Assembly: GCA_964523725.1 (NCBI GenBank)
Contig: CAZGAU010000005.1
Coordinates: 609 to 64,608, forward strand
Direction: 5' to 3'
DNA: 64,000 nucleotides
From: an uncultured Saprospiraceae bacterium
GTDB taxonomy: Bacteria > Bacteroidota > Bacteroidia > Chitinophagales > Saprospiraceae
In this document: in pieces, positions 4,028 through 56,299 of the stretch
Layout of the letters: each line of letters begins with the position of its first letter
How positions within the stretch are numbered: the first letter of the stretch is position 1
Made by a program: the position numbers and the translations under genes
Notes under the pieces: generated by a model
The model's input: only the letters and a program-made list of their open reading frames with translations
What the model was told of the DNA's origin: nothing
Databases searched by the model: none

Positions 4028-4534
4028 TTATTTATTCGTCCAAAAATAAAAATTTACTGAATTTTCCAATTCAAATCCGGTGGCCGGATATAATTGATTT
4101 CCGATGTGATTGTCTTTGGTGGTTTCCAGCAGTAGCCCCGCGGCATTGGTTTCCCTTGCCAGTTCCTTGCAGCGCTCGATCAGTTGTTTGGAAACACCCT
4201 TACCCCGGTGTTCCGGTTTGACATAAAGATCATTGAGTATCCAGAGCCGCTGCATCCGCGTGGAAGAATAGGAGGGGTATAATTGCGTAAATCCAACAAA
4301 TTCGCCGTCAGGGGTTTGGGCTAAATAAATGATGGAGTCTTTTCGGTCAAAAATACCTTTGAGAAACTTGCCAGCGCCTTCGGGATCGGAGGCTTTTTTG
4401 TAAAACACGCGATAAGCATCGAACAGGGGAACGAGTGCGTCGAGGTGTTTTGATGCTGCCTGGATGATTGTAATCATGGTTGATCGGTTGAAGGGTTGAA
4501 ATGTTGATACAGAAAACAGTTTATTTGAGACCAT
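4028..4534 (-). CDS. GNAT family N-acetyltransferase
   Basis: RGKGVSKQLIERC acetyl-CoA binding motif. The start overlaps the stop of the upstream gene (TAATG). Confidence 0.8.
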   Translation of the reverse strand: MVSNKLFSVSTFQPFNRSTMITIIQAASKHLDALVPLFDAYRVFYKKASDPEGAGKFLKGIFDRKDSIIYLAQTPDGEFVGFTQLYPSYSSTRMQRLWILNDLYVKPEHRGKGVSKQLIERCKELARETNAAGLLLETTKDNHIGNQLYPATGFELENSVNFYFWTNK

Positions 4535-5676
4535 TAATGGATCAACTTTTCAACTTCGTATATGGAATTGATCTTACCGGCAAATATGCAATAAAAACGT
4601 GGATTTTCCCGCAAAATGGAAATTTCGGTGGGGCGGCCGTCGTCGATATAATTGGCTTTCAATTTCGACTTAATAGTGAAAAGCGAAGAAAAGTATTGGA
4701 AATCAATATTTTCGGAGAAATACTGCTTCATTTGAGACAACATTTTTCGATAGCTTGATTCGGGTTGTGCCGGACAGTTGTTGCAATTGGCAGGAAAATC
4801 GGGCCGGCAGTTGGTATTGATTTGCTGACAGTTGAAAGTGGGAAGGTTATCATATGATACCTTGTGATGCGTGTAAGCCACGGAGGACAGGGACAGCAAT
4901 CCAGATAATCCGTAGGGCATCATAGAGCCAAACGGTCCGTCCATGACGGTGAGCCCGAGATTTTTAACCTGAGGTGAGGTAACAAACGCAATCTCCGAGA
5001 TTTCGTGCATGAGTTGAATATCGGAAACACCGAAGAGCCGGTTGATGGCGTTGCTGCCGGAGTAGGTAGCGTTGATGACTTGCGCAGATGCGAGATGCCA
5101 GATGTCAGATGCCTGCCGGTGGACGTCAATAATCCATTGATTTTGCTGGGTTTCAGCTGCAAATACTTCTGAAGATGTAAAAACTGTAATATTTTTTTCC
5201 CCAGATATTTTTTGCTTATAATATTCTGCGATTAAAAAAGGATCAAATGAATATTCTACCGTTTTGTATAATGCCTCGATCCGGTTGAAATTAAAAAGCG
5301 GATGATCGCAGATGCGCTCGCAGGGGATGTGGATGTATTCGCAGAAGCGCTCGAATTGCTGGGCATCGGTGAAAGAACCAAATTTGTCGATTGCGTAGTA
5401 TTTCTCGAAATGGAAGTTGATAAAATCCTGATGTTCAGCGGTAAAGCGGGCTTTATTGTCGTCCGACATGAGGGCGGTCGCTACGCTGCGCGGATAATGA
5501 TAGCCTCCGTGCAGCCGTGCCTGATTCACGATGGACGCTTTTTTGAATAGCTCTGCCTCTTTTTCGATGATACAAACCCGCTGTCCCCGCTTCGCCAGGT
5601 ACAGAGCCGCATACGCACCAAAAATGCCACCGCCGATCACCACCGTATCAAAATATTCTCTTTGCATTCTCTTCAC
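4534..5676 (-). CDS. FAD-dependent oxidoreductase
   Basis: N-terminal VVIGGGIFGAYAALYLAKRG...IIEKE dinucleotide-binding motif. Contains a 4-Cys segment, CQQINTNCRPDFPANCNNC. Confidence 0.8.
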   Translation of the reverse strand: MKRMQREYFDTVVIGGGIFGAYAALYLAKRGQRVCIIEKEAELFKKASIVNQARLHGGYHYPRSVATALMSDDNKARFTAEHQDFINFHFEKYYAIDKFGSFTDAQQFERFCEYIHIPCERICDHPLFNFNRIEALYKTVEYSFDPFLIAEYYKQKISGEKNITVFTSSEVFAAETQQNQWIIDVHRQASDIWHLASAQVINATYSGSNAINRLFGVSDIQLMHEISEIAFVTSPQVKNLGLTVMDGPFGSMMPYGLSGLLSLSSVAYTHHKVSYDNLPTFNCQQINTNCRPDFPANCNNCPAQPESSYRKMLSQMKQYFSENIDFQYFSSLFTIKSKLKANYIDDGRPTEISILRENPRFYCIFAGKINSIYEVEKLIH

Positions 5677-5678
5677 AT

Positions 5679-6605
5679 TCAGGCATTTGAAGTAAGCTTT
5701 TGCAAGCTTGAAAACACATCTGCGTAGTCGTAACGTTGAAGCTGCTCAAAAAATTCCACGGTGTCCGCCAATTGTTCTGATTTCGAAGGACCTATGAGAA
5801 TGCTGGCCACGTCTGGGCTGTACCAGGACAAAATCATTCCGAGATGGTTCATTTTACTCAATTTCGGGCGATCTGGCACTTGGTTAGCTTCGGTCAAAAT
5901 TTGCCGCAATGGCACTGCGATGGGATGTTCGGCGGCTACGTCTCCGCCTCGGGCTTTGAGCGAGCTGCCTGTTCTGTAATCTTCAGGATTTAATTTGATG
6001 CCGCCGGCATTAATGCCATATGTAATAAATCTTCTTTTTCCATGAAAAAATTGATATTTTTGATAATCTGATTGTAATAAATTGTGTTTAATTTGAATAA
6101 AAAAATCAAACTGGAAGGTTTTATTTAGTTGCGCATAAAGTTCCGGATGGCGAATGCCGGAGAGTCCGGTCTGCAAGTTATGGGCACGCACGATCTCAAA
6201 GGCTTCCAGCGTTTGCCGGATTTCGTTGCTATCATCGCGATTATCCCAGTGGATCATGAACATGGCGAGGTTGGAGCCATATTTAAAACGGTATTCATCC
6301 AGGTTCATCAGGATAAAGCTCTTGCTCAGGTTGTGTTCGGGGCTGCGCATGTTGTTAATGCTGCCGATTTTTACGATGACTTCCAAATCCTTGACTCCGT
6401 GAGTTTTAATCCATTCGAGTAAAATATTTTCTGCTTTGCGGAAATCTTCGGGACGTTTATTGATCGGGTAGTTGGTGGCTGTGTCTATTTGGCGAAAGCC
6501 AGATGCATAGAAATGATCCAGCAGTTCAAAACAGGTTTTTTCGGGGATTGTCCAGCCCCACATGGCGGTGCCGAGGGTTAGCATTTCATGATTTTCTTGT
6601 TTCAT
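5679..6605 (-). CDS. aldo/keto reductase
   Basis: The AKR-like N-terminus (GTAMWGW...GFRQIDTATNYP) and length are typical of the family. Confidence 0.75.
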   Translation of the reverse strand: MKQENHEMLTLGTAMWGWTIPEKTCFELLDHFYASGFRQIDTATNYPINKRPEDFRKAENILLEWIKTHGVKDLEVIVKIGSINNMRSPEHNLSKSFILMNLDEYRFKYGSNLAMFMIHWDNRDDSNEIRQTLEAFEIVRAHNLQTGLSGIRHPELYAQLNKTFQFDFFIQIKHNLLQSDYQKYQFFHGKRRFITYGINAGGIKLNPEDYRTGSSLKARGGDVAAEHPIAVPLRQILTEANQVPDRPKLSKMNHLGMILSWYSPDVASILIGPSKSEQLADTVEFFEQLQRYDYADVFSSLQKLTSNA

Positions 6606-6707
6606 GGTTTTCTTGTTTCGCTTGGTCTGTCGTAATGATGATTCTGACGATAAATTTCAGTAAGATTCCAAAATTAGGGCTAAATTTCATGATTTAAAAT
6701 CAATACC

Positions 6708-7133
6708 ATGATCGATAAAATTAAACAAACAATCAAAGAACTATCAGAAGCCGTTCAGGAACAAGCTTCTACCTTTGGCGCCGGTGCAAAAGAAAAGAGC
6801 TATGAAATCATTGAAGACTGGTTACAGATTTTCCCGAAACTGGAATTGTACAAGCTGAAAATTACGAGTTTTTCCTTGGGCGTGGCGATTAGCCCTTCGC
6901 TGGAGGTAGAGCTCGTGGGGGATCACAAGGATTTCACGCCGGAGCGTTTGCAGGAAATTCTGGCAGAAACGAAAGGCAGTACCGGGCTTCATCTGGTTTT
7001 TAATACCATCAAAACCGCGTACTCACTACATCGCCGGACTTATGCCACCTTAAGTGATCCTTTGATTGTAAAAATTAAAATCAGGATATCTCCGGAAGTG
7101 CGCGTATTCATCGGGGAGCCGCTGATTCAGTAA
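6708..7133 (+). CDS. hypothetical protein
   Basis: 141-aa ORF with no motif recognised. Confidence 0.45.
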   Translation: MIDKIKQTIKELSEAVQEQASTFGAGAKEKSYEIIEDWLQIFPKLELYKLKITSFSLGVAISPSLEVELVGDHKDFTPERLQEILAETKGSTGLHLVFNTIKTAYSLHRRTYATLSDPLIVKIKIRISPEVRVFIGEPLIQ

Positions 7134-7277
7134 ATCAATGTTTCGGGAATGTGAATATTTCCGGGTTTTTATAGGAAGGAGTTGAACCATATTGGAATAG
7201 TTCATAACTTTGACTATTTGGGTATTTACAAACCTCTTTTACATTAAAGTGTTCTAAATATTTACCAGCGTATAAAT

Positions 7278-8972
7278 ATGAACTTTCCATTACAAAATAT
7301 AGAGGCGCACCTGGACGAGACGTCGCTGCTGCTCGGCGAGCAATTGCTGGAAGAAGGGCGTGTACGGGATTTGCGAGAGCTGGAGCGGCATTTTTGGGTG
7401 GCGCAGGTACAGGAAACCGGAATTTTTGAGGTAGAAATAAAAATTACACCTTCCAAAGTAAAGGCGGCAACTTGTGAATGTAATCGGTTCCAAGAATTGG
7501 GAAAATGCGAGCATATCGCAGCGGTTTTACTTAAACTCAGACAGCAACTTACCAAGCCGGAGCCGCCGGAAGAACCCAGCAATAAAGAAATCGAGGAGGA
7601 TAGCCCGCGCCGCCTAACCACGGGCGTAGTACTGGAACAAGTAGATCATGATGAATTGGTCACTTTTGTAAAGCAATACGCCAAAACCAACCGGAATTTT
7701 GCGCTGGCCCTGAAAGCCCGTTTTGCGCCGAATGTGTCGAGTATCGATAGTCGCGAAAAATACCTTCAGCTTTTGGAAAGCACGATTAGTGCAGCTCGTC
7801 GCCCTGACCGGACGTTCACGCAACGCGGTGCGAATAGCATTTATAAAGTGTTGCTGGAAATTCAAAGCCAGATTGATGATGCGATTGCACAAGGCTATCT
7901 CGCCGAAGCGGTGGTCATGGCGCAAAGTATCATTGAAAAAATCACACCACTGTTGCGCAAAATGCAGGCCATGCAGGAAGAAATCCGGGAACAGATACGC
8001 GAGGCATTTGACGTCTTGCACCAGGTATTGGCGCTCTCTCCGCCGCCGGCGCTGAAGGAGTCGATCTGGGAATACAGCCTGCAGGAGTGCAGGAAATTGT
8101 TGTACCGAAACGCCGAAATCGACCAGTTTTTTTTCAAATTATTGATCCGGATGGCAGAAGAGTCGGTGCATGCCGAACAATTGCTGGAACTACTAGACGA
8201 ACAAATTCACCGGTATTATTTTGAAAAACGAGAATTGGCGAGACTTTTGCTGGCAAAATTGACCTTGCTTGAAAAGCTCGATAGGGTAGAAGAAGCCCAG
8301 GAATTTATCCACCGCTATATCGCCAATGATGAGGTATTGCTATTTGCTATTCGGCAATCGATGAACAAAGGCAATATCAAACGCGCCAAAAATCTGGCAA
8401 AATCCGGACTTGAAAATTCGGTTTCCAAAGAAACCAAAGCGCTGTTGGAAGAAACCCTGCTCAAGATCGCGCAATTGGAAAAAGATACAGCGGCAATTCA
8501 ACTCTACGGGGAAAAACGATTGATAGAAACTCTTGATTTTGAGTATGTCGAACTATTGAAAGAAAATACGAAAGAGCATTGGTTTGAGCTTTTTTCTGTT
8601 CTGCTGGAGCGCATCAGGGAATTACCCTTCTCGGTTGAAAAGCAACGGCTGATTGGGGCAATGTTGTACGAGGAAGGACTTTATAGCGACCTGCTGGTAT
8701 ACCTGCGTGAAACGCAGTCGCTGGATCTGGCGAGCGAATTCGCGCATTTGCTGTTGCCTTATGAACGACTAAAAGTCAGCCAGTTTTATCAGGAATTATT
8801 TGAATTGTACCTGAGTAATCACATCGGGAGGAAGCCTTCCGCGAAAATCAGGATCATCATCCGGGCGCTTTTTGAAAACAATGAAGAAGAACTGGCGGAA
8901 ACTTTAGTGGAAAACCTGCGCAATAATTTCCCGGAACGGCATACTTTAATGGAAGAGTTGGAATTGTTTTAG
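7278..8972 (+). CDS. SWIM zinc-finger domain protein with a long helical-repeat C-terminus
   Basis: CxC...CxH signature in ATCECNRFQELGKCEHIAAVLL. The rest is helical and repeat-like. Confidence 0.75.
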   Translation: MNFPLQNIEAHLDETSLLLGEQLLEEGRVRDLRELERHFWVAQVQETGIFEVEIKITPSKVKAATCECNRFQELGKCEHIAAVLLKLRQQLTKPEPPEEPSNKEIEEDSPRRLTTGVVLEQVDHDELVTFVKQYAKTNRNFALALKARFAPNVSSIDSREKYLQLLESTISAARRPDRTFTQRGANSIYKVLLEIQSQIDDAIAQGYLAEAVVMAQSIIEKITPLLRKMQAMQEEIREQIREAFDVLHQVLALSPPPALKESIWEYSLQECRKLLYRNAEIDQFFFKLLIRMAEESVHAEQLLELLDEQIHRYYFEKRELARLLLAKLTLLEKLDRVEEAQEFIHRYIANDEVLLFAIRQSMNKGNIKRAKNLAKSGLENSVSKETKALLEETLLKIAQLEKDTAAIQLYGEKRLIETLDFEYVELLKENTKEHWFELFSVLLERIRELPFSVEKQRLIGAMLYEEGLYSDLLVYLRETQSLDLASEFAHLLLPYERLKVSQFYQELFELYLSNHIGRKPSAKIRIIIRALFENNEEELAETLVENLRNNFPERHTLMEELELF

Positions 8973-8991
8973 CTACTTGAATTAAAAGTAC

Positions 8992-9465
8992 ATGAAAATC
9001 GAATTTTGGGTCATTGGAAAAACCAACGAAGCATATCTTGAAGAAGGTATTTCTATATATTTGCAGCGGCTACGGCATTATGTGCCTTTTGAAATGATAA
9101 CCTTGCCGGATGTGAAAAATGCAGGTAAACTGGAGAGTGATCAATTAAAAGCAAAAGAAGGCGAGATCGTGCTGAATCGCTTAAAAAAAGAGGATTTGCT
9201 CCTATTGCTCGATGAAAGAGGCAAATCTTATACTTCTGAAACATTCGCCAAGTTCCTGGAACAAAAGCTGCAAATGCCCGGCAAAAAGCTTGTGTTTCTG
9301 GTGGGAGGCGCTTATGGATTCTCCGATGCAGTGTATACACGTGCGGATAGTAAATTGTCGCTTTCAACTATGACTTTTTCGCACCAGATGGTACGGCTGT
9401 TTTTTGTAGAACAACTTTACCGCGCGATGACGATTTTAAGAAACGAACCATATCATAATAGCTGA
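8992..9465 (+). CDS. rlmH: 23S rRNA (pseudouridine1915-N3)-methyltransferase
   Basis: 157-aa SPOUT protein with LVFLVGGAYGFS and C-terminal TFSHQMVRL motifs. Confidence 0.9.
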   Translation: MKIEFWVIGKTNEAYLEEGISIYLQRLRHYVPFEMITLPDVKNAGKLESDQLKAKEGEIVLNRLKKEDLLLLLDERGKSYTSETFAKFLEQKLQMPGKKLVFLVGGAYGFSDAVYTRADSKLSLSTMTFSHQMVRLFFVEQLYRAMTILRNEPYHNS

Positions 9466-13085: not shown

Positions 13086-14288
13086 TTATTTTTCCAGACA
13101 ATTCAGTTGGTTCATAAAAAAGTCAAGATTAAACACTTCATATTCTTCATAGCCGCTGCTCCAGAACATGATCATGCTATCCAGCTCGCCCCGGCGCAAA
13201 ATACTGAGCTGGCTCCGGTCGATTGGGTAGTGCACACGATAAGTCAGGAGTTCCTTTTCGGTATCATAACTTCCCTGATCCATGCGTCCGGCATTTAGTG
13301 TAATAAAATCTCCATTTAGTAACTTTATAATAAGTACGCTATTTTTTTCAATAAAACCATAAGCCTCGCGGGCATTCGGGTACGCAAAACTAAATTGTAA
13401 TGATAAAAACCGGAACCCCGCCATTGAAGTCATAAAACCCTCGCAGCGGAGATATTCCTTGTCTTTGAGATACACGCGCAGGCGCTCGTCGGTGTAAGTA
13501 AACAGCAATTCCTGTTGCATATCGCGGCGCCATTGGCTGGTGGTTTCATCTTTTCCTTCAAAAGCTACATCGCAGCCCTTATCCGGCGGATTGACCATGA
13601 CGTTGTTAGCTTCCCGGATCGAACCGGTTGCTTCATCCAGCGTGACAACGGTTTTGTAAAAATCCTCGAGCAGCGGCTCTACTGTTCCGTTTGGACCCGG
13701 GTTTGTTTTTGCTTGTGCTTTTAATTCCTGCAAAAGCCCGCCTTTACGAGTCAGTTCATCAGCTTTACCGGCTTCCTGGCGCGCCATGCCGGCTTCGCGC
13801 ATGGTTTCCTTTTCGGTGTTGCGGGCGGCGGTCAGGCGGGTATTCAGATTGCGTAAAGTTTCTTCGGGGGCGTTATTTATCTGGGCTTCCCGGAGTTCCT
13901 GCTCCAGTTTTTCGCGTTGCTGCGTAGCTTCCCGAACCCTTTGCTGAGCGATTTGGGCAGCCTCCTGAGCGATTTGGGAGCGTCGAATAAAGATTTTGCG
14001 GGCGTCTTCGTCGGTATTGGCGTACACATTATCCATCGGGAGCACCGTACCGGCAAAAGTAGGATATTTGTCGCCGGTTTCAGCGGGTGTGTAATTCGGA
14101 TCATCTTTGGGATCAAATAAAGCACCGGAAGACACACCGAAATTAGTGAAATATTGCCAGGTGCCGTCGGGGTACACAATAATTTTTTCTCCTTTTTCAT
14201 TCACTCTTAGTTCCTGTGCCTGTAGCGAGAGCGAAAGCCCCATGAATAGTAGGGTGAGCGGTAAAAAATGTTTAAATTGCATATTCAT
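13086..14288 (-). CDS. secreted hypothetical protein with a central coiled coil
   Basis: Signal peptide (LSLSLQA/QE) and a Q/E/R-rich heptad-like middle segment. Confidence 0.5.
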   Translation of the reverse strand: MNMQFKHFLPLTLLFMGLSLSLQAQELRVNEKGEKIIVYPDGTWQYFTNFGVSSGALFDPKDDPNYTPAETGDKYPTFAGTVLPMDNVYANTDEDARKIFIRRSQIAQEAAQIAQQRVREATQQREKLEQELREAQINNAPEETLRNLNTRLTAARNTEKETMREAGMARQEAGKADELTRKGGLLQELKAQAKTNPGPNGTVEPLLEDFYKTVVTLDEATGSIREANNVMVNPPDKGCDVAFEGKDETTSQWRRDMQQELLFTYTDERLRVYLKDKEYLRCEGFMTSMAGFRFLSLQFSFAYPNAREAYGFIEKNSVLIIKLLNGDFITLNAGRMDQGSYDTEKELLTYRVHYPIDRSQLSILRRGELDSMIMFWSSGYEEYEVFNLDFFMNQLNCLEK

Positions 14289-16693: not shown

Positions 16694-17494
16694 ATGACAT
16701 TACTGTTTAAAATAGGATTTTTACCGATTCGCATCTGGGATATTCTCGACATCCTGATCGTGGCATACCTTATGTATCAATTGTACCGGCTGCTCCGGGG
16801 CACCATTGCATTCAATATTTTTATTGGCGTACTCACGCTGTACGTCATTTGGTGGATGGTGGGGCAATTACAAATGGATTTGTTGTCGCAGGTGCTTACG
16901 CAATTTGTAAATGTGGGTGTGATCGTGATCGTGGTCGTTTTTCAGCAGGAAATCCGGCGGTTCTTATTGTTTTTAGGCAATACCACTTTGGAGCGACAGG
17001 TCGAAATCGCGGGACGTTTTTTTGGAAAAAATGAGGCCGTAACCGATGAAAGGGAAAGGCAGAAAATAGCCATTAGACTTGCTATACAACGGATGAGTCG
17101 CCGAAAAACCGGGGCTTTGATTGTGTTGGCCAATGGTGCCAACCTGGAGGGAATTGTCTCTTCCGGTATTGAATTGGATGCCGATATCAGTGAAGCGCTG
17201 CTGGAAAGTATTTTCACCAAGGAAAGTCCTTTGCATGATGGTGCGGTGGTCATCGGCGACGGGAAAATTCAGAAAGCAAGTTGTGTGTTGCCTATTTCTG
17301 AAAATGCAAACCTGCCGGACACAGCGGGCATGCGGCATCGCGCGGCTGTGGGTATTACCGAAAAAGCCAATGTTGCCTCTTTTGTCGTATCTGAAGAAAA
17401 CGGGCGCATTTCGCTGGCTTATAAAGGTGAACTTCACGAAGAACTCACCGAAGAGCAAATCGTGGAAGCATTGAATAAACATTTGCAGGAATAA
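16694..17494 (+). CDS. cdaA: diadenylate cyclase (c-di-AMP synthase), membrane-anchored
   Basis: Three N-terminal TM helices plus DAC-domain motifs: TGALIV, HDGAVVI, GMRHRAA. Confidence 0.9.
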   Translation: MTLLFKIGFLPIRIWDILDILIVAYLMYQLYRLLRGTIAFNIFIGVLTLYVIWWMVGQLQMDLLSQVLTQFVNVGVIVIVVVFQQEIRRFLLFLGNTTLERQVEIAGRFFGKNEAVTDERERQKIAIRLAIQRMSRRKTGALIVLANGANLEGIVSSGIELDADISEALLESIFTKESPLHDGAVVIGDGKIQKASCVLPISENANLPDTAGMRHRAAVGITEKANVASFVVSEENGRISLAYKGELHEELTEEQIVEALNKHLQE

Positions 17495-39931: not shown

Positions 39932-40333
39932 TTATTGCACCCAATTCTCAACTTTCAGGTTAGGGACTCGTCTAAACTCTCTTTCATTATTCGTGACAAT
40001 TGTGATATCCAGACTTTTAGCGTGAGCCGCAATGAGCATATCTAAAGCGCCAATCGGTTGTCCCGTTTTTTCAAGGTGGACACGCAATTCGCCATAAACT
40101 ACTGACGCCTCATAATCAAACTCCACAATTTCAAGCGGAATTAAAAACTGTTGCAGCGCCTGTTGATTTTTTTCTGGCTGTGTGCTTTTGGCAACGCCAT
40201 ATTGCAACTCCGACAAAGTAATAGTGGAAATGCCTACATCGCCAAGGGGCAGTGATTGAAAGCGTTCGAGCACCTCAACCGGTTTTTTCTTGATGATGTA
40301 AATACAAGTATTGGTATCGAGTAGATATTTCAT
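39932..40333 (-). CDS. vapC: type II toxin, PIN-domain VapC
   Basis: MKYLLDTNTCIYIIK... with conserved acidic residues (D6, E43-like, D97-like) and TNNEREF near the C-terminus. 133 aa. Confidence 0.85.
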   Translation of the reverse strand: MKYLLDTNTCIYIIKKKPVEVLERFQSLPLGDVGISTITLSELQYGVAKSTQPEKNQQALQQFLIPLEIVEFDYEASVVYGELRVHLEKTGQPIGALDMLIAAHAKSLDITIVTNNEREFRRVPNLKVENWVQ

Positions 40334-40569
40334 TAGTCAAGCGATTCACGTTCTTGTTGGGCGGGCTGATCGCGGTCATCCATAAAATCCGGCGTGAAGT
40401 TGTTCAGACTTTCAAAAAGGCTCTGCCAGGGATTGTGAAAAGGAATGACATATAAAGTATTACCAAGCTTGCGCAGATATACTTTATCATCGGCAATCTT
40501 CATCCGCTCGGGTATGCGAATGATTTGAGCGCCGTTGGTCTGTTGAATGTCTATGGCTTCGAAGGTCAT
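40333..40569 (-). CDS. vapB: type II antitoxin, AbrB/SpoVT-like VapB
   Basis: 78 aa with an N-terminal swapped-hairpin-like GAQIIRIPERM motif. The stop overlaps the vapC start (TAATG). Confidence 0.75.
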   Translation of the reverse strand: MTFEAIDIQQTNGAQIIRIPERMKIADDKVYLRKLGNTLYVIPFHNPWQSLFESLNNFTPDFMDDRDQPAQQERESLD

Positions 40570-40591
40570 TGGCTTTTATTTTCTTTCAAAA

Positions 40592-40614
40592 CAAAGATAA
40601 CAAAAAGAACGTTC
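40592..40614 (-). promoter_or_regulatory. putative vapBC promoter -7 box (TATCTTTG) with an adjacent GAACGTTC dyad
   Basis: On the minus strand, TATCTTTG (40592-40599) fits the Bacteroidetes TAnnTTTG -7 consensus about 23 nt before the vapB ATG. The perfect 8-bp palindrome GAACGTTC lies at 40607-40614. Confidence 0.35.
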
Positions 40615-40627
40615 CGTGCGCGGGTAG

Positions 40628-40783
40628 GGGCGAGCTTTAGTCGCCCGTGTAATATTTAGTCGCTCTCCCGTTTTAATCGAGTCTCTTGCAAAGGACTCGA
40701 TTGGGTAGGATGTGTTGTGGGATATGATACTACATTGCCGAGTCCCGCCACGCGCAGGCTTGGGCGCGGGAGACTCGGCGGGG
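40628..40783. other. three GC-rich stem-loops between the TIR-like gene stop and vapB
   Basis: A: GGGCGA (40628-33) with TCGCCC (40641-46). B: AATCGAGTC (40675-83) with GACTCGATT (40694-702). C: GCCGAGTC (40737-44) with GACTCGGC (40772-79), with an inner CGCGC/GCGCG pairing and an alternative CCCGCC/GGCGGG pairing. Confidence 0.7.
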
Positions 40784-40794
40784 ACGGAAATGAT

Positions 40795-41811
40795 TTATTT
40801 TGAAATAAGATTTGAGTTTTTTATTTCTTTTTGCAATTCATACTTCCATCCACGATTACTATCAATATTAATATATATCAAACCTGAAACATCACTGGGC
40901 ATTTCGACACCTTTATCTACAAGAATAATAGTCCTGCTGCGTCCTAATTTTGCCAAAAAGTAGCCAAGTTCTAAAATAACATTTTGTCTAGCTCTGGGTC
41001 TTAGGTCTTTTATATCATTATAATTCTTTATGCTACCTATATCGTCGCCTGTAAGTAAAATGATTGCATGCATAGCTTCAGAAGCAGCCTTTTCAAATTT
41101 TTCGATTAACGTTTGTCCTTCATTTGGGCGCTCATGAAGAATAATTGATTTAATTCCTAGTTCATTTTCTACAAACCTGGCGACTTCAAATTTAATGCTA
41201 CTGTCATGACCATGAACAATAAATACCTTATCTGGAATTGGACTTGTAGCTGTGCTTGAAAAAGATACATTCCCAAAATAATCTGGAAGATCATTATAAA
41301 GAATTTTTTCTACTTTTCCTGAGATTTCTAAAGCCCTTTCAGATTGAGGTTCAATTTCTAGCATCGCTTTTTTAGAAGATTCTTCTAAAATATTATACTT
41401 GTCGCCAGGGATCAAACGACTACTTTTTAGAACACTATCATATGTATCTCGTGAAATAATTTCTAACGCCTTTTTATTGGCTCCAGATTTAAGTACAACC
41501 GCAAAAACGGTAAGATTAGCACTTAATTCACATAATAAACCTACATTGTTATCATGTAAAACATTCAAATCTTTAGCGATTACGATGCTTAAATCCCTTG
41601 CTTTATCCCATATTCTACCATCATCTGCATGTTTTTCAAGATTATTAAGCATCGTAATATTATCAGATTCTTCAATGTTTAGTTTTTTTGCTATGATTTT
41701 AATATGATTCTGGATAATTTTTGCACTGTCATAATGTTTACGTTCTAATAAAGAAGCATATCGAATTATTTCAATTCCTAAATTAAAAGCCAAGCCGTAA
41801 TTCTGATTCAT
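40795..41811 (-). CDS. TIR-like domain protein (Cap12/PycTIR-type, PF10137-like C-terminal domain) with an uncharacterised helical N-terminal domain
   Basis: aa ~195-325 read KVFIVHGHD...HAIILLTGDD...RARQNVILELGYFLAKLGRSR...EMPSDVSGLIY. The N-terminal ~190 aa have no motif I recognise. The gene is strongly AT-rich relative to its neighbours. Confidence 0.75.
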   Translation of the reverse strand: MNQNYGLAFNLGIEIIRYASLLERKHYDSAKIIQNHIKIIAKKLNIEESDNITMLNNLEKHADDGRIWDKARDLSIVIAKDLNVLHDNNVGLLCELSANLTVFAVVLKSGANKKALEIISRDTYDSVLKSSRLIPGDKYNILEESSKKAMLEIEPQSERALEISGKVEKILYNDLPDYFGNVSFSSTATSPIPDKVFIVHGHDSSIKFEVARFVENELGIKSIILHERPNEGQTLIEKFEKAASEAMHAIILLTGDDIGSIKNYNDIKDLRPRARQNVILELGYFLAKLGRSRTIILVDKGVEMPSDVSGLIYINIDSNRGWKYELQKEIKNSNLISK

Positions 41812-41858
41812 AATTCTACATTTATTAGTTGTTAGTTAATAGTGAAGAACCATCTTTA

Positions 41859-41866
41859 CAAAAATA
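41859..41866 (-). promoter_or_regulatory. putative -7 promoter box (TATTTTTG) for the TIR-like gene
   Basis: Matches the Bacteroidetes TAnnTTTG consensus about 48 nt upstream of the ATG. I saw no well-spaced -33 TTG. Confidence 0.3.
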
Positions 41867-42028
41867 AAAAACGGATTTAATTTCAAAAAGCACCAAACGC
41901 TTAATTTATTGAATAAATATTATTCTAAGAGGAACTCTCCCCGCCCAAATTTGTTTCTTCTCAAAGCACGAGGTACGAAGTTGGTTGGAAGTACGGTAAA
42001 AGAAGTACGAGGGCTTTTGTACTTTTGT

Positions 42029-42128
42029 TGGAATATTGGAAGGATGGAATGCTGGAATACAGGAAAGTAAGGGCGGCTGTCGCTTTGGGATTCCAATTTT
42101 CCACCGTTCCAACATTCCATTACTCCAA
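42029..42128. repeat. imperfect ~33-bp inverted repeat built from TTGGAA/TTCCAA words
   Basis: The left arm TTGGAATATTGGAAGGATGGAATGCTGGAATAC matches the reverse complement of the right arm (42088-42128) at about 25 of 33 positions by hand alignment. Confidence 0.6.
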
Positions 42129-55186: not shown

Positions 55187-56299
55187 TCAAATTTCCAGGC
55201 TGTTGTAAAATTGTTTCTCCGAAATCTTGGCCCAGTTGGTCGCCTTTTTGCGGAAGCTATCATAGGATTCGTACACGCGTTTGGTGAACGCATCTTTCGC
55301 GGTCATTTCGCCGATCACCTGATTGGTATAAATGCGCAATTGATCCAGTACTTCCTGCGGGAAGGTGCGAATATCCACGCCTTCAGCCAAGAGTTTGGTG
55401 AGCGTTTCACTGTTTTTGGCTTCCATTTGTGCAAACATCCAGACGTGGCTGTGCATGGCTGCGGAGCGCAGAATAGCTTGTAAATCAGCCGGTAAGCTAT
55501 CAAATTGTTTTTTATTAAAAATAAACTCCAGCGCAGTGCCGGGTTCGTGCCAGCCGGGAGTGTAATAATATTTGGCAATATCCTGGAAGCCCATCAAATA
55601 ATCATGGAAAGGGCTCAGCCATTCGCTCGCATCGATCACGCCAAGTTCCAGGCTCGTATAAATTTCGCCGCCGGCCAGTAAAACAGGGGAGCCGCCGGCT
55701 TTGGCCAGGACGTCTCCACCCAGCCCCGGGATACGCATTTTCAGACCTCGCAAATCCGCAATCGAATTGATTTCCCGGTTGAACCAGCCGCCCATTTGCA
55801 CGCCGGTGTTGCCGCCAACCATCGGAATCAGACCAAAATCGCGATACAATTCTTCCCACAGTTGCAAGCCGCCACCCGCCACGATCCAGGAAGTCACTTG
55901 CTGCGCATTCATCCCGAAAGGCACCGAAGCAAAAAACTGCGCCGCCGGGCTCTTCCCCGCCCAGTAGTAAGCTGCGCCATTGCCCACTTCTGCCGTGCCG
56001 CTCGCCACTGCATCAAAAGTTTCCAAGGCTGGAACCAGCTCGCCGCCGCCGAAAACGCGGATTTCCATGCGTCCGCCGGACATTTCTTTTACTTTGTCGG
56101 CAAATAACTGGCAAGCCTCTCCAATCACCGGAAATCCCGGGGGCCAGGTGGTCACCATCTTCCATCGGTACTTTTTATCGCTGATAATGTTCGCCGAACT
56201 GTTATTCTGAGCAATGCTATTGCCAGTCAAAGCCCGGATGATCACAGGTGCGGAGATCGTGCCAATTGCCAGTCCCTTAAAGAAATCTTTGCGCTTCAT
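55187..56299 (-). CDS. dctP: TRAP transporter substrate-binding protein (DctP family) with a Tat-like signal
   Basis: MKRKDFFKGLAIGT... leader, 370 aa, DctP-like. Confidence 0.8.
   Translation of the reverse strand: MKRKDFFKGLAIGTISAPVIIRALTGNSIAQNNSSANIISDKKYRWKMVTTWPPGFPVIGEACQLFADKVKEMSGGRMEIRVFGGGELVPALETFDAVASGTAEVGNGAAYYWAGKSPAAQFFASVPFGMNAQQVTSWIVAGGGLQLWEELYRDFGLIPMVGGNTGVQMGGWFNREINSIADLRGLKMRIPGLGGDVLAKAGGSPVLLAGGEIYTSLELGVIDASEWLSPFHDYLMGFQDIAKYYYTPGWHEPGTALEFIFNKKQFDSLPADLQAILRSAAMHSHVWMFAQMEAKNSETLTKLLAEGVDIRTFPQEVLDQLRIYTNQVIGEMTAKDAFTKRVYESYDSFRKKATNWAKISEKQFYNSLEI

Follow-up and report, generated by a model that had tools for sequence, protein, structure and literature searches.

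We analysed a 64,000-nucleotide stretch of DNA, hereafter the window, from contig CAZGAU010000005.1 of an uncultured Saprospiraceae bacterium, and focus here upon one of its genes, which encodes a TIR-like protein of 338 amino acids (aa). The gene is a complete open reading frame (ORF) with an ATG start, and its product comprises, in order, an N-terminal helical module, a linker and a C-terminal TIR-like domain. Immediately downstream lies a vapBC toxin-antitoxin pair, followed by a SnoaL-like gene, an unannotated gene and aroC; mutS2 lies on the other side (Table 1). A preliminary description of the window had placed the ORF at 40795-41811 and quoted several motifs from its translation, all of which were located at the positions given, namely KVFIVHGHD at residues 195-203, HAIILLTGDD at 248-257, RARQNVILELGYFLAKLGRSR at 273-293 and EMPSDVSGLIY at 303-313. 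The identical 338-aa protein is also recorded in NCBI and Logan assemblies, the exact protein being seen in only two assemblies.

Table 1. Features of the TIR gene and its surroundings, with positions in the window (pLDDT, predicted local distance difference test score).
Feature	Position	Strand	Basis
TIR gene, complete 338-aa ORF, ATG start	40795-41811	minus	ORF list
N-terminal module, aa 1-181, putative sensor/regulatory domain	41269-41811	minus	AlphaFold2 model
Inter-domain linker, aa 182-194	41230-41268	minus	AlphaFold2: aa 187-191 with pLDDT <50
CAP12/PycTIR-type TIR domain (PF10137), aa 195-317	40861-41229	minus	Pfam, PADLOC profiles, PDB matches
Codon of Glu281, putative catalytic residue in NVILELGY	40969-40971	minus	Plus-strand TTC = GAA on the minus strand
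Strain-specific cassette with TIR gene, ~1.29 kb, in slot between mutS2 and vapBC	40645-41930		BLASTN against syntenic loci
TAttTTTG, Bacteroidota-type -7-like box within the cassette, 48 nt upstream of the ATG	41859-41866	minus	Pattern search
GC-rich stem-loop, ~16 bp, from 16 nt past the TIR stop	40737-40779	minus	RNA fold
vapB	40333-40569	minus	NCBIfam VapB subfamily, 63 bits
vapC	39932-40333	minus	NCBIfam VapC equivalog, 188 bits (cut-off 140); PIN domain

The C-terminal domain matches PF10137 (CAP12-PCTIR_TIR) with an E value of 7.4e-36 and a score of 123.2 bits, against a gathering score of 24.7, and the match covers positions 1-118 of the 119 in the profile; judged by sequence, this assignment is far beyond chance. 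The preliminary description had expected the family over residues 195-325 or thereabouts, and the Pfam scan places it at 195-317. A HMMER sequence search of the PDB yields the Cap12 TIR-STING protein (9lmq, E 2e-5; 7un8) and PycTIR (8jsj, E 2.8e-4) as the only solved relatives. Comparison of the predicted TIR structure, a flavodoxin-like alpha/beta fold, with the PDB using Foldseek likewise ranks the TIR-STING filament structures 9lmq and 7un8 first (E 3e-5 to 9e-5), followed by the TIRs of MyD88, SPARTA TIR-APAZ and SARM1, with weak matches to nucleoside 2'-deoxyribosyltransferase and DNPH1 enzymes at E values of about 0.1.

The putative catalytic residue Glu281, the codon of which had been correctly positioned in the preliminary description, is invariant across an alignment of 27 sequences, including the glutamate of the unrelated TIR_2 domain of P0121, a protein to which we return below. 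In the HMMER alignment Glu281 pairs with residue 86 of chain 9lmq_A, counted from the printed start at residue 47. In TIR-STING, E86 is reported to be the catalytic residue and the E86A protein to be dead (PMC12421889); we infer that the protein studied there is 9lmq, with the same numbering. The intact 338-aa ORF retains all residues that are invariant or nearly so in the 27-sequence family alignment.

Profile searches at the level of named effectors give a more specific placement. With the NCBIfam Cap12 equivalogs the protein reaches 37 bits where the cut-off is 450, in the TIR part only, and the PADLOC models of CBASS and Pycsar TIR effectors score 39-52 bits, the PycTIR model reaching 38.7 bits over the TIR part; by these scores the domain is not an orthologue of the Cap12 or PycTIR TIRs. 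Five PADLOC models of PDC-S35 match residues 185-334 with E values of 5.6e-61 to 4.4e-38 and up to 205 bits, spanning positions 110-254 of the 264 in the profile and 44% of the 338-aa protein. Only the TIR half belongs to PDC-S35, and the profiles assign this half to the PF10137 clade that PADLOC lists under that name. The best of them (E 5.6e-61) contradicts the preliminary claim that the protein lies outside the named systems. The PDC families are a set of 145 untested candidates, nominated because members of them are embedded within BREX, DISARM or type I restriction-modification loci (10.1101/2024.01.29.577857).

The N-terminal module is predicted to consist of eight helices, at residues 3-23, 27-43, 50-61, 67-85, 88-109, 113-129, 136-152 and 158-181. 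Modelled alone with AlphaFold2 from a two-sequence alignment, it reaches a pLDDT of 92 and a predicted template modelling score (pTM) of 0.89, and the same helices appear in the full-length model computed from the 27-sequence alignment (mean pLDDT 89.6). The pTM of the whole model is 0.64 despite the confidence of both domains, and for this reason the orientation of the TIR domain relative to the N-terminal module is left undefined by the prediction. No family in Pfam, NCBIfam or the PADLOC profiles matches the module. Foldseek returns nothing usable from the PDB (best E 0.34, NasR, TMq 0.42) or from BFVD (best E 0.27), and neither sequence nor fold yields a match to STING, SAVED, cyclic nucleotide monophosphate (cNMP)-binding, CARF or SLOG sensors. 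The preliminary impression of an unrecognisable helical part of ~190 aa is thus borne out by an all-helical model that is devoid of family or fold matches in these databases.

A single relative of the N-terminal module, namely P0121 (E 5.5e-4 for the whole library), emerged from an exhaustive HMMER search across 1.84 billion representative proteins; it is encoded on a 3.2-kb contig from a soil metagenome. In a pairwise BLAST comparison the two sequences align with an E value of 2e-12 and 25% identity over 188 aa (25-27%, from residue 1 to about residue 180). They share the position of the start and the motifs AFxLG..RYAxL, VGLLCEL and GANK, and the conserved polar motifs of the module are R17-Y18, E95 and G110-A-N-K113. 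The C-terminal half of P0121 is a TIR_2 domain rather than PF10137, and SpbK is the top match to it in PADLOC as well as in the PDB. The occurrence of the same rare module on two TIR clades argues that it is a genuine, transferable domain working together with a TIR, and, as far as sequence comparison goes, the module is portable between TIR types.

The rarity of the module rests on the exhaustive HMMER search together with pattern scans, as a word-indexed search missed even the self-match. A degenerate DNA pattern encoding VGLLCEL, 13 intervening residues and GANK gave 0 matches in genome contigs and 0 in viral contigs, and automatically derived patterns of the module gave 97 candidates in genome contigs, none of which was confirmed. 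In metagenome contigs the VGLLCEL-13aa-GANK pattern recovered the contig of P0121 itself and one further locus (L003), which is a chance match with no ORF across it. Several possible identities of the module were rejected. Descent from the common PDC-S35 N-terminus is not upheld by hhalign, which assigns a probability of 0.3%. A HEPN-like nuclease is not indicated either, as there is no conserved Rx4-6H and P0121 lacks a histidine at the matching place. Finally, a profile of the module run against PDB sequences matched PCNA only, which is spurious.

More than 4,900 proteins match the TIR half, typically at ~55% identity and over the C-terminal 45% of the query only. All of the 119 best relatives end in the TIR domain and a conserved tail, which together make up the last ~145 residues. 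Their N-terminal parts, of 40-240 residues, form at least 15 clusters that are unrelated by BLAST; one N-terminus type is dominant (83 members), and a canonical TIR_2 is another. Of 72,556 plasmid records, 1160 carry relatives of the TIR domain, and these are mostly conjugative plasmids of Klebsiella and E. coli. Relatives also occur in five phage records, including E. coli phages in which they are annotated as 'TIR-like domain-containing protein', and on at least 70 IMG/VR contigs, where their N-termini add at least 10 clusters. Such a combination, a conserved effector with a hypervariable front end carried by mobile DNA, typically marks a defence protein that senses directly.

The neighbourhoods of six sampled homologues often hold genes of a defence-like or mobile kind, namely an AAA_15/AAA_21 ATPase, SLFN_AlbA_2, a DNA methyltransferase, transposases and EVE. 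In one of the sampled loci (L010, positions 4092-9161) three PF10137 genes, encoding proteins of 287, 191 and 386 aa with different N-termini, stand in a row directly downstream of mutS, and this array adjoins a transposase and an N6/N4 DNA methyltransferase.

Comparison with syntenic loci from other assemblies demonstrates that the TIR gene occupies a strain-specific cassette. The cassette measures ~1.29 kb, as homology breaks at ~41931, just after the conserved GGGCGGGGAGAGTTCC, and at ~40644; about 120 bp of it lie upstream of the ORF and about 150 bp downstream. The TIR gene has a GC content of 31.4%, alike in both halves, against 44.5% for the window and 49-54% for aroC and mutS2. In the locus L015, with flanks 98.3-98.5% identical, aroC, a hypothetical gene and the SnoaL gene are followed by mutS2, with neither vapBC nor the TIR gene. 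In the loci L016-L019, the flanks of which are ~90% identical, vapBC is present and a 443-bp segment stands where the window has the TIR cassette; this segment carries an unrelated ORF of 90 aa, which has 31% GC and gives no PADLOC match. The slot between mutS2 and SnoaL/vapBC is a variable hotspot observed in three states (window 40645-41930, L015 12628-13758, L016 7312-8001). The TIR gene is recently and horizontally acquired accessory cargo, and the accessory, defence-like character attributed to it at the outset agrees with its presence or absence between close strains, its 31% GC and the relatives on plasmids and viral contigs.

The cassette also carries candidate expression signals, and the TIR gene looks like an autonomous transcription unit within this small variable hotspot. 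The -7-like box upstream of the ATG conforms to TAnnTTTG, which we take to be the consensus of Bacteroides promoters, and the distance from it to the nearest upstream TTTG is 17 nt, below the usual 19-21. Scans for sigma-70 promoters and U-tract terminators tell little about this organism, with 11 promoter-like sites where 7 are expected and 0 terminators. The stem-loop past the TIR stop is probably a transcript end or an insulator between the TIR gene and vapBC; it is missing from the terminator scan because it has no U-tract. The surrounding intergenic segment (40570-40800) folds with -74.6 kcal/mol and a z-score of -5.2, and none of 200 shuffled sequences folds as well. From the TIR stop to vapB (40570-40794) the DNA has 51% GC and forms three hairpins, two of them around GAGTC/GACTC, with no Rfam match and no second copy in the window. 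Rfam gives no family at E <=1 over the interval 38-44 kb.

Two further sequence elements were observed at the cassette and beside it. A GC-rich 8-mer, GGCGGGGA, and its reverse complement, TCCCCGCC, lie at the cassette ends (40777-40784 and 41938-41945); for 64 kb the expectation is about 0.5 copies per strand, and only one further copy occurs, at 55954. The pair may have been left by the insertion mechanism, or may be due to chance. The 'unusual repeats' at 42026-42128, upstream of mutS2, constitute a long imperfect hairpin of GGAAT/ATTCC-like units. L015 (about 13630-13745) and L016 each have, at that position, a hairpin of other units (GCAAG/CTTGC) with no detectable sequence similarity, and the fold z-scores are modest (-3.4, -1.6 and -2.2). 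This hairpin may be a structured element of the mutS2 leader or promoter region that turns over rapidly. The idea that the two intergenic regions are copies of a dispersed repeat was discarded, as no other copy lies within the window.

A possible partner of the TIR protein was sought by a Pfam scan of the 45 other ORFs of at least 150 aa in the 64 kb, overlapping antisense ORFs being left out. None of these 45 contains a CD-NTase/SMODS, class III cyclase, SAVED, STING, cNMP-binding, SIR2/SLOG or TIR domain. Neither the TIR protein nor its neighbours match the ThsB and ThsA models, and no SIR2, SLOG or Macro domain is encoded nearby. The sampled homologues agree: beside none of the six is there a cyclase or nucleotide-sensor gene, a ThsA-like gene or another adjacent effector. 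The earlier statement that the TIR protein has no signalling partner therefore holds among the window ORFs of at least 150 aa and beside the six sampled homologues. The adjacent vapBC pair was rejected as a functional partner and is an independent module, because it occurs without the TIR gene in L016-L019. The only nucleotide cyclase among the scanned ORFs is a housekeeping CdaA diadenylate cyclase (DAC and CdaA_N domains; 16694-17494, plus strand), 24 kb away, and nothing ties it to the TIR gene. Elsewhere in the window, a 564-aa protein (7278-8972, plus strand) has a weak SWIM zinc-finger match (E 7e-5) as its sole Pfam signal.

The preliminary description had regarded the architecture as one that the known named systems do not cover, a claim that goes too far, since single-protein TIR abortive-infection systems with non-nucleotide N-terminal sensors have already been described. 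SpbK, from the ICEBs1 element of Bacillus subtilis, is likewise one polypeptide on mobile DNA, with an N-terminal helical bundle, a C-terminal TIR and no partner gene. Its N-terminal domain attaches to the dodecameric phage portal at the clip domains, and this leads to TIR clustering and NADase activity, and according to the same authors STING-TIR, SAVED-TIR, Pycsar, SARM1 and plant NLRs follow this clustering principle (PMC12847820). SpbK differs in that its TIR is of the TIR_2 type and not PF10137, and in that its N-terminal domain is a four-helix bundle, in contrast to the eight helices predicted here. The 338-aa protein has no match to the spbK model, and SpbK is absent from the 50 best PDB fold matches of the N-terminal module; the likeness is one of architecture, not homology.

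A second precedent is provided by E. coli. TIR-V and TIR-IX act as protective single-protein systems whose C-terminal TIRs can be superimposed and whose N-termini are dissimilar; portal proteins trigger them, and the conserved TIR active-site residue is required, and for the one-gene TIR systems of E. coli shown experimentally to protect, the triggers are phage structural proteins, either portal or tail fibre (PMC11350192). Nothing suggests a shared N-terminal module. By analogy with SpbK and the E. coli proteins, the protein encoded in the window probably works like the SpbK-like single-protein TIR systems.

Members of PDC-S35 resemble the protein in their PF10137 clade, their single-gene organisation, the C-terminal position of the TIR with its conserved tail, identities of ~55% shared with thousands of them, and an occurrence on plasmids, phages and variable chromosomal sites. 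The N-terminal module sets the protein apart from them, for it is unrelated to the dominant PDC-S35 N-terminus and longer (181 aa against about 100-150). Cap12 and PycTIR share the Pfam TIR family, provide the closest structures (9lmq, 7un8, 8jsj) and have in common with the protein the glutamate context R-x-N-V-x-x-E-x-G; by analogy, their hydrolysis of NAD+ (nicotinamide adenine dinucleotide) upon oligomerisation would be expected here as well. Cap12, however, has a STING domain and a CD-NTase in its operon, neither of which is found here, and its TIR is N-terminal where the present one is C-terminal; PycTIR has a cNMP-binding domain and an adjacent pyrimidine cyclase, both again missing here. 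A further relative is a 367-aa PF10137 protein encoded on the Klebsiella IncI plasmid NZ_CP071822.1 (locus L008, 5347-7640), which also has a C-terminal TIR behind a ~200-aa N-terminus of non-PDC-S35 type and matches PDC-S35 in the TIR half only. There, a DUF4238 gene follows directly on the same strand, whereas nothing comparable exists in the window, and the N-termini are unrelated. Similar matches are very common on Klebsiella and E. coli plasmids, and the two genes of that locus may form a two-gene TIR/DUF4238 system.

We lean, by a little more than an even chance, towards a gene product that would be a self-contained, direct-sensing TIR NADase, activated by oligomerisation and aborting phage infection. 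The domain identities, the conserved glutamate, the lack of a partner among the scanned ORFs, the shuffling of modules, the mobility of the family and the presence/absence polymorphism are matters of observation; NADase activity, a role in defence, direct sensing and activation by clustering we infer from the precedents SpbK, TIR-V and TIR-IX. In the mechanism that we propose, the eight-helix N-terminal module would take the place of a STING, SAVED or cNMP-binding sensor. At rest the TIR domains would be held apart or in a non-productive arrangement, the module keeping the protein inactive. The module would bind its trigger directly, most likely a multimeric phage protein or assembly, as SpbK binds the portal. 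Binding would then cluster the TIR domains and complete a composite active site that includes Glu281, and the clustered TIRs would deplete NAD+, so that phage production in the infected cell stops.

A number of considerations weigh against this proposal. We found no experiment upon this protein or upon any member of PDC-S35, and a full-text search for 'PDC-S35' returned no paper. The locus is not a defence island, all genes beyond vapBC being housekeeping genes, and defence genes are weakly enriched in the sampled homologue neighbourhoods. The last ~8 residues of the C-terminal tail common to most relatives are absent from the 338-aa protein. As the PDC-S35 profiles match the TIR half only, the coverage rules of PADLOC might not call the gene. 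Moreover, the conservation, interfaces and pockets of the N-terminal module cannot be judged from only two sequences, and direct sensing rests on analogy because the module has no recognisable binding site or homologue.

Some of these points would fit a protein with no role in phage defence, namely a selfish or addiction toxin on a small mobile cassette, an enzyme with some other nucleotide substrate, or a silent or decaying gene of recent arrival, an explanation that we consider unlikely. The surroundings, which consist of housekeeping genes and one toxin-antitoxin pair, the shortened C-terminal tail and the restriction of the exact protein to two assemblies are compatible with it, as is the sharing of the TIR fold by nucleoside 2'-deoxyribosyltransferase and DNPH1. 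Yet the deoxyribosyltransferases are far poorer matches than the TIR-STING NADase structures, and decay is at odds with an intact ORF that keeps all invariant residues and with the confident modelling of both domains. The presence of the family on phages and plasmids with hypervariable N-termini, and its nomination through embedding inside BREX, DISARM or restriction-modification systems, also speak for defence.

Quite unlikely, in our estimate, is an orphan effector in which the N-terminal module binds a diffusible small molecule (for instance a nucleotide second messenger or a signal derived from NAD), made by a cyclase or TIR encoded elsewhere, by housekeeping enzymes of the host or by the phage, with oligomerisation of the TIR as the consequence, as happens in CBASS and Pycsar. 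All characterised PF10137 systems, Cap12 and PycTIR, are ligand-activated, a TIR-SAVED effector has been reported to sense host cyclic di-AMP without its cyclase (10.1101/2025.06.19.660554), the window itself encodes the diadenylate cyclase CdaA, and the conserved polar motifs of the module could line a pocket. Set against this are the lack of a sequence or fold match between the module and known nucleotide sensors, its all-helical character, which recalls the protein-binding N-terminal domain of SpbK, and the lack of a cyclase beside any of the six sampled relatives. In addition, many unrelated N-termini on one TIR type are a better fit to an arms race with phage proteins than to a few messengers.

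A signal-producing TIR of the ThsB type, which would sense infection and make a messenger derived from NAD or resembling cyclic ADP-ribose for an effector elsewhere, is highly improbable: although many bacterial TIR proteins are signal generators (10.64898/2025.12.03.692087) and some ThsB proteins are reported to sense phage capsid proteins directly (PMC11312562), the protein has no ThsB match in PADLOC, its matches outside PDC-S35 being CBASS and Pycsar TIR effectors, PF10137 forms a TIR clade of its own, apart from the ThsB-type TIRs (10.64898/2026.04.30.722052), neither this gene nor those of the six relatives adjoin a ThsA-like or other effector gene, as would be found in Thoeris, and the systematic survey of TIRs and Thoeris set stand-alone TIRs aside as non-signalling (10.64898/2025.12.03.692087).

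Returning to the direct-sensing NADase, the one-gene TIR architecture is already known in outline, and the novelty lies in the N-terminal module and in its presence on two TIR clades. We tentatively suggest, as a possibility that falls short of an even chance, that this module is an undescribed, portable infection sensor mounted on two unrelated clades of TIR NADases and that a single-protein TIR defence system of a new kind is defined by it, with only two occurrences among about 15 billion predicted proteins and with a trigger (probably a component of phages of this Bacteroidota-like host) and a mode of activation that differ from those in the named systems.

Stand-alone TIR proteins abound, yet surveys usually skip them or list them as untested candidates. 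The self-contained cassette of 1.3 kb described here offers a clean test case, with near-identical flanks that lack the cassette and a sister lineage in which other cargo occupies the slot. The same module on two TIR clades is direct evidence that sensor and effector halves are exchanged as units, and the window protein and P0121 constitute a matched pair for probing what the sensor targets and whether it can drive either type of TIR. If the proposed function is correct, a new sensor fold would join the direct-sensing, NAD-depleting defences, an addition that would not overturn current understanding of them.

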